Shown here: piece by piece, positions 2,199 through 57,395 of the stretch
Layout: each line of letters opens with the position of its first letter
Position numbering within the stretch: the first letter of the stretch is position 1
Translations under genes and position numbers: made by a program
Assembly (NCBI GenBank): GCA_016432485.1
Contig: CP066691.1
Span: 11,348-75,347, forward strand
Length of the DNA stretch: 64,000 nt
From: Candidatus Niyogibacteria bacterium
Lineage (GTDB): Bacteria > Patescibacteriota > Minisyncoccia > HO2-45-28
Direction: 5' to 3'
Notes under the pieces: model-generated
Database searches by the model: none
The model's input: the letters and a program-made list of their open reading frames with translations, nothing else
What the model was told of the DNA's origin: nothing

Positions 2199-4376
2199 GT
2201 GTCTAAAAACGTGAAAATTATAGCTACTCTGGGCCCCGCAACCAGAAAAGAAGGCGATGTGCTTAAAATGCGCGGCCGTGTTGATTTTATCAGGGTAAAT
2301 ATGTCCCACTCTTCGCTTGAGGACTTGGATTATTTTGTTAAAATTTCAAAAAAAGTCGGCATCCCTTTTATTCTTGATACCGAGGGGTCGCAGATAAGGA
2401 GCGGAAGGTTTGAAAAACCGCCCGTTTATTTTAATAAAAACGATATGGTGGAGCTTTTGGGCGAGAGCGGAATTAAATCTGTAGGAGATAAAAATAAGAT
2501 TTATCTTCGTCCAAAAGAAATAATCCCGCAGCTTGAAGAAGGAGATATTCTTTATATGGATTTTGACACGTTGGCTTTGCGTGTTACCGATAACACTTTG
2601 CGTGACAAGGGGCGCGTTGGGACTAGCGTTATTACGGGAGGTTTTTTGGGCAACAATAAAGGTGTCGTGGTTGATTCGGCTTTTACTAAATCATATAGTT
2701 TGCCCACTCTTTCGCCAAAAGACACAGAAGCCATAAAAATCGGACTTGCTGAAAACCTCGGCTATATCGCCGCCTCGTTTATGCGTTCGGGGGAGGCCGT
2801 TGATGAGGTAAGAGAGGAAACGGATGGCAAGATGAAAATTATTTCAAAGATAGAATGCCAAGACGGCCTGAATAATTTAGATGACATTATTGCCAAGTCC
2901 GACTTTTTGCTTATTGACAGGGGCGACTTAAGTAAAGAAGTCCCTTTGGAAGACATCCCGTTTCTGCAAAAGGAAATAATTTCAAAAGCAAAAAGCGCAG
3001 GCAAAGGCACGTATGTCGCCACAAATCTTTTAGAAACAATGGTTGAGAAGAAAAAATCGACAAGGGCTGAAGTATGCGACGTGGTCAATATAATCCGCGA
3101 CGGAGCTTATGGGCTGACGTTGGCGTCAGAGACCGCCATAGGAAAATATTCCATGGAATGTATAAATATGCTAAATACCTTAATCTCGCGCGCCGGGTTG
3201 GGAAAAGGCAGCGACGCTTTAATTGCCCCTCACGGCGGAAAGCTTATCCATAGAATGATAAACACCCCGCCCGATAGTTCTTACTTAAACTCGCTTAAAA
3301 AATTGGAAATATCAGATGATATAGCGATGGACACGGAGCAGATAGCAACCGGCGTTTTCAGCCCACTGGAAGGTTTTATGGGGCGGGCAGATTTTCAAAG
3401 CGTTTTAGACAGCGCCCGTCTTGCAAACGGTCTGGTCTGGCCGCTTCCGATTGTTCTGGACGCCAGGCAAAATGACGCTGACGGATTTAATGCCGGAGAA
3501 GATATCGCGCTTACGCATAAGGGAGAGACACTTGCCATTTTACACTTGGATGAAAAATTTAATTTTGACAAAAAAGAAACAGCCCGAAAGATTTACGGAA
3601 CTCTAAACGAAGAACATACCGGCGTGCGGGGGGTTTTCGCGATGAATCCGGTTTTACTTGCCGGAAAAATTTCTCTTTTAAAAAGGAGAAATGCCGAACA
3701 CTTGGCTTACGCTCTGACTCCGAAGCAAGTGAGGCGGATTTTTAAAGAAAGGCACTGGTCGCGCGTGGTCGGGTTTCATACAAGAAATGTGATTCATAGA
3801 AGTCATGAGCATATACAGCTTGCCGCAATGAAGCAGGAAAACTGCGACGGGCTGTTTGTGCATCCGGTGGTCGGTAAGAAAAAGCCTGGCGATTACAACG
3901 CACGCTACATAATCAAGAGTTATGAAAGGATGCTCGGCGGCTTATATCCTGAAAATAAAGTTGTACTCGCAGCTTTCAATACCTATTCAAGATATGCCGG
4001 GCCAAGAGAGGCGTTATTTACCGCCATTTGCCGCCAGAATTTCGGCTGCAGTCATTTTGTGGTCGGACGAGACCATACCGGAGTCGGAAATTTTTATCCT
4101 CCGACGGCCTCGCACGACATATTTGACAAGTTTCCCGACCTGGGCATTAAAGCCGTGAAATTTGACGAAGTGTTTTATTCCAAAAAACTGGGTGCTTATG
4201 TGCGCGGCGAGGACAGCCCGAATCATGCTCCCGAGGACAAACTTTCCATCAGCGGCACCCAGGCGCGAAAAATGTTTGAGCGCGGTGTGGCGCCTCCGGA
4301 GTGGTTTATGCGCCCGGAAGTGTCCGGAATAATTATTGACGCCTTAAAACGCGGCGAAAAAGTGTTTGTGGAATAA
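2199..4376 (+). CDS. sat: Fusion protein: N-terminal pyruvate-kinase-like barrel domain (about aa 1-335) + C-terminal sulfate adenylyltransferase (ATP sulfurylase, Sat)
   Basis: The N-terminal part shows PK signatures in order: KIIATLGPAT, RVNMSHSS, LDTEGSQIR, ISKIECQDGLNN, LIDRGDLSKEVP, ATNLLETM, STRAEVCDV. The C-terminal part shows ATP sulfurylase signatures: APHGGKLI, GFHTRNVIHRSHEHIQ, VHPVVGKKKPGDY, VVGRDHTGVG. GTG start. Confidence 0.8.
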   Translation: MSKNVKIIATLGPATRKEGDVLKMRGRVDFIRVNMSHSSLEDLDYFVKISKKVGIPFILDTEGSQIRSGRFEKPPVYFNKNDMVELLGESGIKSVGDKNKIYLRPKEIIPQLEEGDILYMDFDTLALRVTDNTLRDKGRVGTSVITGGFLGNNKGVVVDSAFTKSYSLPTLSPKDTEAIKIGLAENLGYIAASFMRSGEAVDEVREETDGKMKIISKIECQDGLNNLDDIIAKSDFLLIDRGDLSKEVPLEDIPFLQKEIISKAKSAGKGTYVATNLLETMVEKKKSTRAEVCDVVNIIRDGAYGLTLASETAIGKYSMECINMLNTLISRAGLGKGSDALIAPHGGKLIHRMINTPPDSSYLNSLKKLEISDDIAMDTEQIATGVFSPLEGFMGRADFQSVLDSARLANGLVWPLPIVLDARQNDADGFNAGEDIALTHKGETLAILHLDEKFNFDKKETARKIYGTLNEEHTGVRGVFAMNPVLLAGKISLLKRRNAEHLAYALTPKQVRRIFKERHWSRVVGFHTRNVIHRSHEHIQLAAMKQENCDGLFVHPVVGKKKPGDYNARYIIKSYERMLGGLYPENKVVLAAFNTYSRYAGPREALFTAICRQNFGCSHFVVGRDHTGVGNFYPPTASHDIFDKFPDLGIKAVKFDEVFYSKKLGAYVRGEDSPNHAPEDKLSISGTQARKMFERGVAPPEWFMRPEVSGIIIDALKRGEKVFVE

Positions 4377-24154: not shown

Positions 24155-24328
24155 AAAAATTTTACCTCGGATACTTATCCACAGGTCGCCTACTTGCGGC
24201 CTTTTTTCTTTAATAAGATACTAAATACAAGGGCATTTTATATGTCCTGAAATGGTCTGAATTTTAATAATTTTTTATTATTAATTATTAAATAGTTTAA
24301 TTACTAATTAATCTAAAAGCATAAAAAT

Positions 24329-25816
24329 ATGCGTAATGTCTTAAGTTTTTTTGATACTCGTCGAATCAGCGGCATAATTGCCGCGACAGTTTTGTCGCTT
24401 TTAATGGTGGCCCTCATTACATACGGTGCGACCACAATAAGCACGAATATAGATACTGCAGGAACATTGAATGTTAGCGGCGCAACTACGCTTAACGGCG
24501 CGGCTACTTTGGGCGATGCGATTGGTGACAATGTTACAATAACCGGCAATGCCACCACATCGAATTCATTGTATGTGACCGGCGGATTTGTTGTTGATGG
24601 TTATGCGACTACAACAGCGAACAACGGAAATTTCGAGACTGCGGGCACGCTTACCGTAACCGGCGCCTCAAACTTGAACGGCGCGGTAACTTTGGGTGAT
24701 GCGATTGGTGACAATGTTACAATAACCGGCAATGCCACCACATCGAATTCATTGTATGTGACCGGCGGATTTGTTGTTGATGGTTATGCGACTACAACAG
24801 CGGGCAGTGGAAATTTCGCGACCGAAGGCTCGCTTTTGGTTACCGATCTTTCTACTTTGACCGGCGGTTTTATTTCCTCCGCTTCCTCTACGGTAAATTC
24901 TCGCTTGAATGTGCAAGGTCCGCTTTCAGCTTCCAGCTCATTGATAGTGGCCGGCACGGCAACTTTTGATGGTAATGTTACGGTAACAGGCACTTTCTCG
25001 CCTTCGCAGACGTCAGCAACTAACTTTACTGTTAACGCTTCCACCTCCTTAAACAGAGTACAGGTAGCAGGAAATTTTTCAGCTTCTTCCACAGCTGACA
25101 TATTGGGGGAGGCAAATTTTCAGGGCGGATTTATTGGTAACTCTTCCTCCTCTGTAAATAGGTTGCAGGTTGCCGGGTACCTTTCAGCTTCCAGCTCATT
25201 ATTGGTGGCCGGAGCAACTACGCTTGATGGCGCGGTTACTTTGGGAAATGCCGAGGCAGACAACATTGCGGTCTCAGGCACAATCACCGGATTTTTCTCT
25301 AACGCTTCTTCATCCGTTCATTCCAACTTTAACGTAAATGGCCCGCTTTCCGCTTCCAGCTCATTGATAGTGGCCGGAGCAAGTACGCTTGATGGTAATG
25401 TCACTTTGGGCAATGCCGCGGCGGACGTCATTACAATTACTGGCAACGCCTCCACGACCAACTCATTGACGGTTGGGGCCACGGCAAGCACGACTAAATT
25501 AATTGTCGGTGGCAATGATATAAACGGCACATTTGCCGGAATGGTCTTTGGGACCTGCAACTTGACATCCGCAGCTCTTGCTGCCTCAACGACCAAGAAC
25601 TTTGCCTGCACGAGCGCCACAGGAGTGCGCTCTAGCGATACACTATTCGTTAACGCGACTTCCAGTTTGGTTTCCGGCCGTTTTGACGATCAAATCTTCA
25701 TTCGCGCAGCGTCTTCGTCAATTCTCAACCAGATAAATGTGGATATTACCAATACAGGAATAACCTCGGGTTCTCAAACAATATCAGGCACTTTGCAATT
25801 CTGGGCAGTGCGATAA
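24329..25816 (+). CDS. Thr/Gly/Asn/Ser-rich tandem-repeat surface protein with N-terminal membrane anchor; candidate glycosylated filament/adhesin
   Basis: N-terminal hydrophobic anchor, then 61-aa repeats (GDAIGDNVTITGNATTSNSLYVTGGFVVDGYATTTA). A 105-bp DNA block is exactly duplicated at 24515-24619 and 24698-24802. The protein is 35-40% Ser+Thr+Gly+Asn+Ala. Confidence 0.6.
   Translation: MRNVLSFFDTRRISGIIAATVLSLLMVALITYGATTISTNIDTAGTLNVSGATTLNGAATLGDAIGDNVTITGNATTSNSLYVTGGFVVDGYATTTANNGNFETAGTLTVTGASNLNGAVTLGDAIGDNVTITGNATTSNSLYVTGGFVVDGYATTTAGSGNFATEGSLLVTDLSTLTGGFISSASSTVNSRLNVQGPLSASSSLIVAGTATFDGNVTVTGTFSPSQTSATNFTVNASTSLNRVQVAGNFSASSTADILGEANFQGGFIGNSSSSVNRLQVAGYLSASSSLLVAGATTLDGAVTLGNAEADNIAVSGTITGFFSNASSSVHSNFNVNGPLSASSSLIVAGASTLDGNVTLGNAAADVITITGNASTTNSLTVGATASTTKLIVGGNDINGTFAGMVFGTCNLTSAALAASTTKNFACTSATGVRSSDTLFVNATSSLVSGRFDDQIFIRAASSSILNQINVDITNTGITSGSQTISGTLQFWAVR
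24474..24802. repeat. Intragenic tandem repeat (183-bp period, 105-bp identical core)
   Basis: The core gatgcgattggtgacaatgttacaataaccggcaatgccaccacatcgaattcattgtatgtgaccggcggatttgttgttgatggttatgcgactacaacagcg occurs twice. Confidence 0.8.
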
Positions 25817-46567: not shown

Positions 46568-47044
46568 ATGAATAATTTTCAAGACGCTGAATATTTGAGT
46601 CAGGAAGGTTTTGACCGCCTGAAAGCCGAATTAAAGAGCCTGAAGAATGAAAAAAGAAAGGAAATAGCGAGCCGTCTGGAATATGCCAAGGGACTCGGCG
46701 ATCTTTCCGAGAACTCCGAATACCACGAGGCCAAGGAGGCCCAGCTGGAAAATGAAGGCCGGATTGTTGAGTTGGAAGATGTGCTGGCGCGTTCGGTGAT
46801 TATGTCTAAAGCCCCCGCCAAAAATAACGTGGCCATAGGGTCAACCGTGGTTGTGGCTCGCGCCGGTTCTTCCGATTCTTTTACCTATATTCTTGTGGGG
46901 TCTGAAGAATCCAATCCCATTAAATCAAAAATATCTTACGGATCCCCTCTGGGGCGGGCTCTTTTGGGGCGTAAAAAAGGCGAGGAAGTTAAAGTTGTTG
47001 CTCCCAGGGGAGAGATAAAATATAAAATTCTTGATATAATGTAA
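46568..47044 (+). CDS. greA: Transcription elongation factor GreA
   Basis: YLSQEGFDRLKAEL...GDLSENSEYHEAKE coiled-coil plus C-terminal FKBP-like domain. Confidence 0.85.
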   Translation: MNNFQDAEYLSQEGFDRLKAELKSLKNEKRKEIASRLEYAKGLGDLSENSEYHEAKEAQLENEGRIVELEDVLARSVIMSKAPAKNNVAIGSTVVVARAGSSDSFTYILVGSEESNPIKSKISYGSPLGRALLGRKKGEEVKVVAPRGEIKYKILDIM

Positions 47045-47046
47045 AG

Positions 47047-48504
47047 ATGAGTCTTGATGAAATCAGGTCGGATAGACTGAATAAACTAGCAAAAATTAAA
47101 GCCGCCGGAATTGAGCCATATCCCGTCATAAGCTCGGGATTATTTGATTTAAGCAAGGTAAGGTCAGAATTTAACTCGCTCAAAAAGAAAAAATCGCTGA
47201 TTTTAAGCGGAAGAATTGTAGCTATGCGCGTCCACGGCGGGTCTATTTTTTGCGACATCTTTGACGGCCGCGATAAGTTTCAGGTTTATCTGAAAGAGGA
47301 CGATTTGGGTCGTAACTTCTCGCTTTTTTCGGAATTGGCCGACTCAGGAGATTTTTTTGAGTTCAAAGGCAGGCTTTTTTTAACCAAGAAAAAAGAAAAA
47401 ACCCTTTTGGTTTCCGGCTGGCGGATTTTAGCCAAAAGTTTAAGGCCGCTTCCCGAAAAATGGCATGGCCTGCAAGATGTTGAAGAAAGATACCGCCGGC
47501 GCTATCTGGATTTATTGTCAAATCCGGAAGTGCGCGAGCGTTTTGACAAGCGCACAAAGATTGTTACGGAAATCAGAAAATTTCTGGACAAGTTGGGGTT
47601 TCAGGAAGTTGAAACGCCGCTTTTGCACGCGCTTGCCGGAGGGGCCGCGGCCAAGCCCTTTAAAACCCACCATAACGCGCTGGACTACGAATTTTATCTG
47701 CGCATAGCTCCGGAACTTTATTTAAAAAGGCTGCTTATCGGCGGAATGGAAAAGCTTTATGAAATCGGGCGAAATTTCAGGAACGAAGGCGTTGACGTTT
47801 CTCATAATCCGGAATTCACGATGCTTGAACTTTACGAATCGTTTTCAGACGCGGAAAATCATCGGGATTTTGTTGAGAAACTTTTAAAACATTTGGTTAA
47901 AACCATAAATAAGTCCTTGATTGTCAAGTATCAGGGGAGTGAAATGAATTTCGGAAAAAAATTTGTCTCCATCACTTTTGAAGACGCTTTGAGCCGGTTT
48001 GCCCTGGTAAATAATTATAAAAAAATATCGGAAGAAGAATTAAAACTTAAAGCCAAACAGTTCGGCATAGAGCTGGAGCACGGAGATTTTAAGGCAAAAA
48101 TTGCCGATAAAATTTTTAAAAAGATTTGCCGTCCTAAAATAATACAGCCGACTTTTGTTTTGTATTATCCTTTGGAAATTTTGCCTTTGGCTAAAGAATC
48201 AGGCGAGTATCCGGGGATGGCAGATATGTATCAGTTAGTCATAGGCGGTTTGGAATTAGTTAAGGGTTTTTCGGAATTGAACAATCCTTCCGAACAGCGC
48301 CTGCGTTTTGAAGCGCAGGAAGAAATGCGTAAAGCAGGCGACCAGGAAGCAAGCCGAATGGACGAAGAATATCTTGAAGCAATGGAATACGGCATGCCTC
48401 CGGCGGCAGGTTTGGGCATGGGCATTGACCGTTTAGTTATGTTTTTGACTAATACCGCCAATATCCGCGAAGTCATCCTTTTTCCCACACTGCGTCCGGA
48501 ATAA
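47047..48504 (+). CDS. lysS: Lysine--tRNA ligase (class II)
   Basis: OB-fold N-terminal, motif 2 FRNEG...HNPEFTMLE, ELNNPSEQRLRF, motif 3 GLGMGIDRLVMFLT. Confidence 0.85.
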   Translation: MSLDEIRSDRLNKLAKIKAAGIEPYPVISSGLFDLSKVRSEFNSLKKKKSLILSGRIVAMRVHGGSIFCDIFDGRDKFQVYLKEDDLGRNFSLFSELADSGDFFEFKGRLFLTKKKEKTLLVSGWRILAKSLRPLPEKWHGLQDVEERYRRRYLDLLSNPEVRERFDKRTKIVTEIRKFLDKLGFQEVETPLLHALAGGAAAKPFKTHHNALDYEFYLRIAPELYLKRLLIGGMEKLYEIGRNFRNEGVDVSHNPEFTMLELYESFSDAENHRDFVEKLLKHLVKTINKSLIVKYQGSEMNFGKKFVSITFEDALSRFALVNNYKKISEEELKLKAKQFGIELEHGDFKAKIADKIFKKICRPKIIQPTFVLYYPLEILPLAKESGEYPGMADMYQLVIGGLELVKGFSELNNPSEQRLRFEAQEEMRKAGDQEASRMDEEYLEAMEYGMPPAAGLGMGIDRLVMFLTNTANIREVILFPTLRPE

Positions 48505-48535
48505 GTAAAATATTTAGGAAATTAAAATTAAAGAC

Positions 48536-48562
48536 GGGCTCCGACGATATTTGTCGGAGCCC
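48536..48562 (+). terminator. Terminator-like hairpin gggctccgac-gatatttg-tcggagccc after lysS (weak T-tract)
   Basis: Perfect 10-bp stem 30 nt after the lysS stop. Confidence 0.4.
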
Positions 48563-48731
48563 GTTCGGGTCTCTCGGTTCTCTCCTCTGTTATTTTGTTT
48601 ATCTCAGAAGATGTAGTCCGCCTCCAGCGGGTAGTCCTCCTGGGTGTTCTTGAGTCTCGCTGTGGGCGGGGCGAGCGTCGGAAACCGAGGGTGTCCGAGA
48701 CCGAGGGTCGGAACAATTTTGCCTCGGATAG

Positions 48732-48887
48732 TTATCCACAATAGAGGATTTGATTGTTTTTTAGAGTAAAGTGGTATAAAATTATATATAAGTGGTGAAT
48801 TGTGGATAAATCTGTGGATAGTGTGGATAAATACCGATATTGCCTACGAACGGAGTGAGTAGACGCAATATCGAGCGTTTATCCACC
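48732..48887. promoter_or_regulatory. Cluster of five DnaA boxes plus AT-rich tract (oriC-like or DnaA-regulated region) upstream of mraZ
   Basis: TTATCCACA at 48732-40. TGTGGATAA at 48801-09 and 48823-31. TGTGGATAG at 48814-22. TTATCCACC at 48879-87. AT-rich run aaagtggtataaaattatatataag at 48770-48795. Confidence 0.6.
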
Positions 48888-49032
48888 CTCACACCCAAAA
48901 ATCACGTATTATGTTCAATTTTTATGAATCATATTCAAGGAGAGAATTAAAAGCGACGCCCCCCAAGTTGTTTTTGGGTGTGAGGGTGCGCAATTTTACA
49001 ACCAAAATTTCTTCGCCTAACGGCTCGAAATT

Positions 49033-49482
49033 TTGGGAAAAATTGGCATGTTAATAGGCGAATTTCAGCACATATTGGACTCCAAAAAACGGGTGGCATT
49101 ACCTGCCAAATTAAGGCGTGAACTTGGTAAAAACGCCGTAATTACGCGCGGATTGGATAAATGCCTTTTTGTTTATCCTCTTAAAGAATGGGAAAAAGTC
49201 GCCGAAAAACTTTCAAATCTTCCGGTGGGGCAAGCCGCCAACAGAAGTTTCGTGCGTTTGTTTTTGGCCGGAGCGGCTTATGTTGAAACAGACCAACTCG
49301 GGCGCGTTTTGGTTCCGGACTATTTGAAAGAATACGCCGGCCTTTCGGAAAGAGTGGTAATAGCCGGCGTTTACAAGCGTTTGGAAATTTGGGACGCGAC
49401 CAGATGGGATAGTTATAAGCGGGAAATAGAAAAGCAGGCGGATGTTTTGGCGGAAAAACTCGGCGAGATCGGGGCCTACTAG
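49033..49482 (+). CDS. mraZ: Transcriptional regulator MraZ
   Basis: Tandem MraZ domains: GEFQHILDSKKRVALP and DQLGRVLVPDYL. Confidence 0.85.
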   Translation: MGKIGMLIGEFQHILDSKKRVALPAKLRRELGKNAVITRGLDKCLFVYPLKEWEKVAEKLSNLPVGQAANRSFVRLFLAGAAYVETDQLGRVLVPDYLKEYAGLSERVVIAGVYKRLEIWDATRWDSYKREIEKQADVLAEKLGEIGAY

Positions 49483-56504: not shown

Positions 56505-57395
56505 ATGGCCAATCGTCACCTTTCCCGCAGCATAGTTTTGCAGACCCTCTTTGAATGGGATTTTAACGGTTTTGTTTCAAAGAGCGCGGATGCCGGGCTT
56601 GAGCGCAATTTAAGCGAATTCGCTCCCGGACTTGAAGACGGCGGTTTTTCCAAAAAATTGATTAAGGGCATTGTTAAAAAGCGAAAGGAGCTGGATAAAA
56701 TCATTGAAAAAGCGGCGCCCGAATGGCCTTTGGCGCAAATCGCGATGATTGATCGCAATGTTCTGCGCATCGGACTTTACGAGCTTATTTTCGGCGACCG
56801 AAAAGAGGTGCCTCCGAAAGTTGCCATCAACGAAGCGATAGAACTGGCCAAGACTTTCGGCGGCGATTCATCCGGCAGGTTCGTCAACGGGGTTCTGGGC
56901 ACGGTTTACCGCGAAATGGGCGAGCCGGGCAAAGACGACGACAGTCAAAAAAAGAAAAAAATAGCCGACCCGTCAAAACTTCCCCGAGAAGAATTGGGCG
57001 GGGGTGTTGTGTATCGGCGCGAAAATGGAAAATTAAGTTTCGCTTTGGTGCATGATGTTTTCGGATACTGGACGCTTTCCAAGGGACATCTTGAGGAGGA
57101 TGAGGATGCCCGTCAAGGAACTAGCCGCGAACTTGCCGAAGAGCTGGGACTTAAAAATCTGGAACTGCTTGAAGAAATAGGAGTTAATGAATACATCGCT
57201 TCAGACCCCAAAAAAGGTCCGGTCAGGCGGCGCGTATCCTATTTTTTAGTTGAAGCAAAAGATAAAGATTTGCGGCTTGGGCCATCTGGCGGATTGGATG
57301 ACGCCCGATGGTTCAGCATTGAAGAAATGGAAGATTTAAAAATATATGACGATATCCGTCCGCTTATTCAAAAAGCGCTTTTGAAATTAAAATGA
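56505..57395 (+). CDS. nusB: Fusion: transcription antitermination factor NusB (N-terminal) + Nudix hydrolase (C-terminal)
   Basis: The NusB fold covers about aa 1-140 (SRSIVLQTLFEWDF...). A canonical Nudix box GHLEEDEDARQGTSRELAEELGL (G-x5-E-x7-REUxEExGU) lies in the C-terminal half. Confidence 0.75.
   Translation: MANRHLSRSIVLQTLFEWDFNGFVSKSADAGLERNLSEFAPGLEDGGFSKKLIKGIVKKRKELDKIIEKAAPEWPLAQIAMIDRNVLRIGLYELIFGDRKEVPPKVAINEAIELAKTFGGDSSGRFVNGVLGTVYREMGEPGKDDDSQKKKKIADPSKLPREELGGGVVYRRENGKLSFALVHDVFGYWTLSKGHLEEDEDARQGTSRELAEELGLKNLELLEEIGVNEYIASDPKKGPVRRRVSYFLVEAKDKDLRLGPSGGLDDARWFSIEEMEDLKIYDDIRPLIQKALLKLK

Follow-up and report, generated by a model that had tools for sequence, protein, structure and literature searches.

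A DnaA-box array upstream of mraZ in Paceibacteria is probably a promoter-operator of the division operon and not a replication origin

Introduction

The closest described counterpart of the locus studied here is the yllB(mraZ)-ylxA-ftsL-pbpB operon of Bacillus subtilis. As related in later accounts (PMC2533591, PMC8203912, bioRxiv 10.1101/2022.02.09.479790), Goranov et al. 2005 reported that DnaA binds yllB (= mraZ)/ftsL and regulates it negatively in replication stress. DnaA is proposed to turn division genes down when replication is disturbed, and the same logic could apply to our locus, where DnaA boxes lie at the promoter of the corresponding operon (mraZ-rsmH-ftsL-pbp), a likeness drawn from published description. 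Smith & Grossman 2015 mention neither yllB, mraZ nor ftsL, and, according to a review, a major effect of DnaA on cytokinesis timing has not been shown in any species (PMC8203912). Compared with the B. subtilis operon, the boxes here are far more conspicuous, with three perfect 9-mers and a fixed triple spaced 12 and 9 bp apart; they are deeply conserved across a class of CPR bacteria and are interleaved with GTGG repeats.

In other bacteria the mraZ promoter is also a known target of MraZ. MraZ operators comprise three to four GTG(G/T) boxes separated by 6-nt spacers at the mraZ promoter, and in Mycoplasma genitalium the transcription start site lies inside MraZ box 1, with contacts made by K13, R15 and R86 (PMC12957436). 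The B. subtilis operator is GTGG[A/T]G-N4 repeated three times (bioRxiv 10.1101/2022.02.09.479790). In Escherichia coli, MraZ has been reported to bind a site that overlaps the mioC DnaA box (PMC4446571), so DnaA-like sequences can be MraZ targets and an overlap of the two regulons is not unheard of. Like the MraZ-binding repeats of E. coli, B. subtilis and Mycoplasma, our locus has direct GTGG repeats at and just after the mraZ promoter and an MraZ with conserved contact residues and, as in M. genitalium, four boxes run from the (here predicted) start site onward. It departs from them in its spacing of 10, 12 and 9 bp, where theirs is strictly 10 bp, in flanks that are conserved to the full DnaA-box 9-mer, and in an extra inverted box upstream.

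Two further kinds of DnaA-box array invite comparison. Stable DnaA sites of B. subtilis are characterized by tight box packing (PMC2533591), and the clusters of that organism (gcp-ydiF, ywcI-vpr, ywlC-ywlB, thdF-jag and others; PMC2533591), together with E. coli datA, share with our array tight packing, gaps of a few base pairs and a place outside oriC; ours, in contrast, has only 4–5 boxes, precisely overlaps a predicted promoter and is tied to one operon. Arrays of the oriC type in dnaA-dnaN spacers are alike in box sequence and in the tandem 12/9 module, but our locus has no skew switch, no divergent genes and no dnaA or dnaN nearby, and has a predicted promoter in place of the unwinding element. 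What the comparison yields is a strikingly conserved CPR example of a DnaA-box array at mraZ and a tandem DnaA-box module that recurs across phyla.

An array of five DnaA boxes between lysS and mraZ

The array lies in a 64-kb stretch of DNA, analysed whole and referred to as the window. Pfam searches place greA (46568–47044) and then lysS (47047–48504) upstream of it, and mraZ, rsmH, an ftsL-sized ORF, a PBP gene and a Mur ligase gene downstream; the true start of mraZ is the ATG at 49048. A first-pass annotation had described five DnaA boxes within 160 bp, three of them perfect and two differing by one base, with three co-oriented at 9–13-bp spacing. Our motif search recovered all of these, using matches to TTATCCACA with at most one mismatch, a general consensus that may not be that of the Paceibacteria oriC. 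The five boxes occupy 48732–48887, or 156 bp, and the three on the minus strand are direct repeats of TGTGGATA with start-to-start spacings of 12 and 9 bp. The boxes and the gene that follows them are:

48732–48740, plus strand: box 1 (upstream), perfect TTATCCACA, in the opposite orientation to the triple, at about −58 to −50 with respect to the predicted start site
48801–48809, minus strand: box 2, perfect
48813–48821, minus strand: box 3, CTATCCACA, one mismatch
48822–48830, minus strand: box 4, perfect
48879–48887, plus strand: box 5, TTATCCACC, one mismatch
48801–48830, minus strand: triple direct array TGTGGATAA-atc-TGTGGATAG-TGTGGATAA, a putative composite DnaA-box/GTGG operator in the leader, spanning about +12 to +41
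49048–49482, plus strand: mraZ, encoding 144 aa and leading the dcw/mra operon (Pfam MraZ, E = 3.8e-34)

Such a concentration is not expected by chance: the whole window holds only 20 matches, 15 of them outside the array and four perfect, and the maximum of five boxes per 160 bp compares with at most three in 200 block shuffles, three being reached in 2 of the 200. The boxes are closely spaced matches to TTATNCACA with at most one mismatch, as in DnaA-box clusters. Their spacings of 12 and 9 bp match neither the strict 10-bp rule of MraZ nor any documented rule for DnaA. The array region is identical base for base across seven independent assemblies (L001–L007) and is therefore not an assembly artefact. 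In three of these assemblies (L003, L004 and L007, Logan contigs), breaks fall at 48730 and 48801 of the window, precisely on the edges of boxes, which suggests co-existing strains that have the conserved core in common and differ in its flanks.

Several other features of the surroundings can be recorded. Past lysS lies one further element:

48534–48564, no strand assigned: GC-rich, terminator-like hairpin with a 12-bp stem, just past the lysS stop; T-run on the minus-strand side only

In relatives, a terminator hairpin sits directly before the upstream box. Here, the intervening segment (48565–48716) is GC-rich and contains 16-nt direct repeats (GTCGGAAACCGAGGGT / GTCCGAGACCGAGGGT). Positions 48553–48654 are 100% identical to part of one relative (L008), which has about 425 bp extra at this place. 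A 62-aa minus-strand ORF at 48528–48716 was rejected as a gene, being of low complexity, rich in Arg, Pro and Thr, and overlapping the hairpin. The 24-nt repeat TTTTRCCTCGGATASTTATCCACA is present in two copies (24160–24183 and 48717–48740), with none expected by chance. Its copy at 24 kb contains the only other perfect DnaA box of the window; it is flanked by a Wzy_C/TPR gene and a bactofilin-domain gene (24329–25816) and is placed just before a terminator-like hairpin; this copy might be a second DnaA-linked cell-envelope promoter or the end of a repeat element. Two unusual fusions were also seen in the window: a single 725-aa ORF that joins a pyruvate-kinase barrel, PUA_2 and ATP-sulfurylase (2199–4376), and a 296-aa ORF with NusB and NUDIX domains (56505–57395). 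Rfam at the gathering threshold found two tRNAs in the whole window and nothing else.

A conserved predicted promoter and GTGG repeats within the array

The first-pass annotation took the box array and the AT-rich run beside it together as an origin signature. The array stands, but the AT-rich run aligns in 18 related loci as TTG-17 bp-TAnAAT and, on this alignment, is a conserved sigma-70-type promoter, not an unwinding element. The call rests on the alignment; a simple promoter consensus scan did not report this promoter. The predicted elements, and two GTGG boxes that accompany them, are:

48754–48759, plus strand: predicted −35 element, TTGTTT; TTG conserved; in 18 of 18 aligned loci the −10 element follows after a 17-bp spacer free of gaps
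48771–48774, plus strand: GTGG box, aaaGTGGt, abutting the −10 element; MraZ-type, not DnaA-like, conserved, 21 bp upstream of the next GTGG
48777–48782, plus strand: predicted −10 element, TAAAAT (TAnAAT in relatives); alignment consensus aGTGGt.TA.AaT, also found in 21 more distant loci
48792–48795, plus strand: GTGG box of the MraZ type, aaGTGGtgaatt, located where transcription is predicted to start; the next GTGG follows exactly 10 bp on

The transcription start site is thus a predicted position, placed by conservation. The first-pass annotation overlooked a second likeness of the direct repeats, to MraZ operator boxes, whose GTGG core and approximately 10-bp phasing they share. Five GTGG cores share one orientation (48771, 48792, 48802, 48814 and 48823; relative positions −21, 0, 10, 22 and 31). 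Their intervals are 21, 10, 12 and 9 bp, of which one is exactly 10, and the positions 0, 10, 22 and 31 are within 1 bp of helical phase, so that the cores of the direct repeats appear to fall roughly on one helical face, as in known MraZ operators.

The array follows mraZ across Paceibacteria

For comparison we assembled 80 mraZ loci from different species of Paceibacteria (Patescibacteria), found through MraZ, which also places the window in this group, close to Ca. Niyogibacteria. Within 500 bp before mraZ, boxes number 4.35 per kb, compared with 0.28 per kb in the remaining 1.1 Mb, an approximately 16-fold difference. Upstream sequence of 300 bp or more was available for 76 genomes. In 74 of them these 500 bp contain one box or more, and in 30 they contain three or more, against Poisson expectations of 0.13 and 0.0004, respectively. 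Outside the regions upstream of mraZ, 1.23 Mb of related loci contained 17 perfect boxes and no meaningful cluster.

Approximately 18–25 genomes share one design, in which a single box upstream of the −35 element is followed by three direct boxes (12 and 9 bp apart) past the predicted start. Eighteen of these loci, among which MraZ identity falls as low as about 65%, were aligned, and their consensus reads gtTATCCACA ... TTG-17 bp-TA.AaT ... aaGTGG..aattGTGGATAAa.cTGTGGAtA.tGtGGATAA. Its elements run in the order gtTATCCACA, −35, aGTGGt abutting the −10, aaGTGG..aatt, GTGGATAAa.cT, GTGGAtA.t, GtGGATAA and mraZ. This core of about 100 bp is conserved, its flanks cannot be aligned, and all nine positions are near-invariant in boxes 1, 2 and 4. 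The third box is degenerate in some relatives, where it reads GGGGATAA, a poor site for DnaA and MraZ alike. Box 1 is inverted in most genomes and direct in four (L014, L015, L095 and L116).

The 21 more distant Paceibacteria loci have a different array,.TGTG(G/T)ATAAc-TGTGGt....G-GTGGG....A-GTGGTATAnAAT, with exact 10-bp steps and spacers of low information; the loci L031–L084 keep a strict 10-bp GTGG period. Only the first box of these 10-bp arrays is DnaA-like, and this, with the low-information spacers, indicates that two classes of site, one MraZ-type and one DnaA-type, differ from each other.

The first-pass annotation had offered, as its fallback, that DnaA regulates the mraZ (dcw) operon. 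The comparative evidence supports this proposal: the array follows mraZ in dozens of genomes. It gains further from the B. subtilis precedent and from DnaA-box arrays beside dnaA elsewhere, described below, which have the same sequence and spacing.

A variable structured leader and the fifth box

Between the array and mraZ, the window has a leader of 217 nt (48831–49047), compared with 12–116 nt in relatives, and no relative contains a match to it; in most relatives only 12–34 nt separate the array from mraZ. The leader RNA fold has a z-score of −5.4, and two structures stand out:

48822–48887, plus strand: leader hairpin in which box 4 pairs with box 5 (TTATCCACC, 48879–48887); same design in L008 and L021–L023
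48884–48988, plus strand: perfect 18-nt inverted repeat (48884–48901 / 48971–48988) that encloses 69 nt, inside the strain-specific leader

Box 4 (48822) forms the 5′ arm of the hairpin and box 5 (48879) its 3′ arm. The four relatives with the same design have entirely different inner stems, L009–L013 have no hairpin, and box 5 is absent from most relatives. Box 5 may therefore not be an independent binding site; a more fitting view is that it belongs to a leader that is structured and variable. A permissive Rfam scan of 48450–49150 gave no match, which indicates that the leader is not a known RNA family; in sequence it looks like palindromic insertions. Leaders also vary among close relatives: L008 encodes an MraZ that is 99% identical, yet its leader is unrelated and it has the additional upstream sequence noted above. 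In L026, a small ORF that by eye reads like a GIY-YIG nuclease (…GLYIGYTDNLERRLEQH…) lies in the mraZ leader, between the array (about −377 to −357) and mraZ.

The tandem module recurs without mraZ

A metagenome scan with the pattern GTGGATAA-N4-GTGGAYA-N2-GKGGATAA, which describes the 12/9 triple, matched at least 120 loci (L088–L207). Only 11 of these at least 120 listed loci lie upstream of mraZ: ten are of the Paceibacteria type, all with lysS upstream, and one has a divergent mraZ. The remaining loci, approximately 109 and without mraZ, fall into at least 44 unrelated families with a GC content of 23–67%; many are from the human gut, and further boxes are often nearby.

Two of these contexts involve dnaA itself. 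In L097, a five-box array lies 17 nt after a dnaA stop codon, and in L105 the module lies inside dnaA domain II, next to dnaN. In the L161 family it is inside trmE, between jag and mnmG, a location that resembles the B. subtilis thdF-jag cluster. Elsewhere the module is adjacent to murC (L111 and L153), spo0A (L187) or serS (L139 and L183). Its recurrence in dnaA and in unrelated contexts argues that the 12/9 triple is a general DnaA-box module. The divergent mraZ belongs to an organism of 64% GC, in which the triple lies between a TTGACA-type promoter and mraZ, followed by rsmH (L110:3722–4300, array orientation); a DnaA-like array at the mra promoter, Pmra, is therefore not confined to Paceibacteria.

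MraZ, titration or an origin

MraZ alone could explain the direct repeats, and we count this against a role for DnaA. The GTGG repeats would then be purely autoregulatory, the match to the DnaA box (T-GTGG-ATAA) would be a lineage-specific, AT-rich flavour of the spacers, and DnaA would have no role. Much of what such an operator should have is present, and the rules for it are published: the array is on the mraZ promoter in dozens of genomes and immediately upstream of the gene, it has the three or four direct GTG(G/T) boxes expected of such an operator, with five GTGG cores roughly in helical phase, and the translated MraZ retains all of D11, K13, R15, D82 and R86, the residues that contact DNA (roles according to PMC12957436). 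Relatives have textbook GTGG-N6 arrays, the same module accompanies a divergent mraZ at 64% GC, and E. coli MraZ reportedly has a binding site that overlaps the mioC DnaA box (PMC4446571). MraZ autoregulation at Pmra in Paceibacteria is very likely, because the contact residues are kept, the five GTGG cores are direct and relatives carry 10-bp arrays of the textbook kind.

However, sequence comparison suggests that MraZ by itself does not account for the data, in which whole 9-mers are conserved, box 1 can be inverted and the triple recurs without mraZ. MraZ contacts only GTG(G/T), and the spacers of MraZ-type boxes are unconserved in relatives whose MraZ has the same contact residues, whereas here the T and ATAA that flank the core are near-invariant. 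The upstream box, inverted in most genomes, could not be read by a head-to-tail MraZ oligomer; an asymmetric monomeric reader would tolerate either orientation, which supports DnaA. The same 12/9 triple also occurs at the approximately 109 loci without mraZ, including sites adjacent to dnaA. Moreover, perfect TTATCCACA is, to our knowledge, a high-affinity DnaA site in every system studied. We therefore regard an operator for MraZ and nothing else as unlikely, while retaining MraZ as a probable participant.

Closely packed high-affinity boxes also typify clusters that titrate or organize DnaA, such as those of B. subtilis and E. coli datA, and the array could in principle serve mainly to control initiation by buffering free DnaA, any influence on mraZ transcription being incidental. 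The many non-promoter sites of the module in other bacteria, even within the coding sequences of trmE and dnaA, are in keeping with such a function. Against it, the position of the boxes relative to the conserved −35 and −10 elements is fixed across genomes, with boxes bracketing the promoter, and 1.2 Mb of related sequence contains no second cluster; binding at +12 to +41 would in any case affect transcription. We consider this explanation improbable, and somewhat more so than MraZ alone.

The first-pass annotation had preferred an oriC displaced from dnaA, a claim that was not borne out. Its observation that dnaA is not nearby is correct: Pfam scans of all large ORFs found neither dnaA nor dnaN in the 64-kb window, nor the other origin-proximal genes rpmH, gidA and parB, and a regular-expression search for the DnaA Walker-A and domain-IV motifs had no match in the window or in the 87 loci L001–L087. 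The cumulative GC skew, which it had proposed as a check on the whole assembly, rises monotonically within the window through 48.8 kb; GC skew is positive in every 2-kb bin on both sides. Between 5 kb and 64 kb almost every gene is encoded on the plus strand, with the same direction either side of the array. Third-codon-position skew of minus-strand genes was used to separate coding bias from replication bias. Read on the plus strand, it is positive for all seven such genes, of which six precede the array and one follows it, so on either side the plus strand has the character of a leading strand. This bias looks replication-linked, without a flip at the array. In 17 relatives with the same array, the sign of the skew is likewise unchanged across it. 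Thus, although five boxes in 160 bp adjoining an AT-rich stretch, the triple in the oriC-type array that flanks dnaA in L097 and a window without dnaA would suit a chromosomal oriC, the unswitched skew here and in the 17 relatives, the co-oriented genes, the conserved predicted promoter that constitutes the AT-rich stretch, and an array that tracks mraZ at variable distance and tolerates insertions between itself and the gene make this reading highly improbable, and we reject it.

Discussion

We favour, with a probability of roughly 0.6, the reading that the array is the Pmra promoter-operator of the mra/dcw operon under DnaA control, probably overlapping MraZ autoregulation, and not an origin; which proteins bind and whether they activate or repress are inferred from sequence. 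DnaA would fill the closely packed triple (about +12 to +41) cooperatively and would possibly bridge from there to the upstream box (about −58 to −50). Bound DnaA would repress or throttle transcription of mraZ-rsmH-ftsL-pbp, so that division-gene output would follow DnaA and replication status. MraZ would autoregulate through the overlapping GTGG sites, and may compete or cooperate with DnaA.

A more ambitious extension, which we put forward tentatively and consider doubtful on present evidence, has two parts. Pmra of Paceibacteria would be a composite switch, in which DnaA and MraZ compete for overlapping sites (TGTGGATAA contains GTGG) and the initiator gates the division operon, and the 12/9 triple would be a portable DnaA landing pad used across phyla, at oriC flanks, dnaA, trmE, murC, spo0A, serS and mraZ.

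For annotation, the lesson is that a textbook origin signature, with dense perfect boxes and an AT-rich stretch, can be a promoter, and box density alone would mislead oriC predictors on CPR genomes. The coupling of replication to division in bacteria is still poorly understood. Paceibacteria, as members of the CPR, are ultra-small and have very few regulators. The DNA fragment that carries the four-box core is small, about 100 bp (48732–48830), and an array fixed on the dcw promoter across a class of CPR bacteria suggests a simple, testable form of replication-division coupling.
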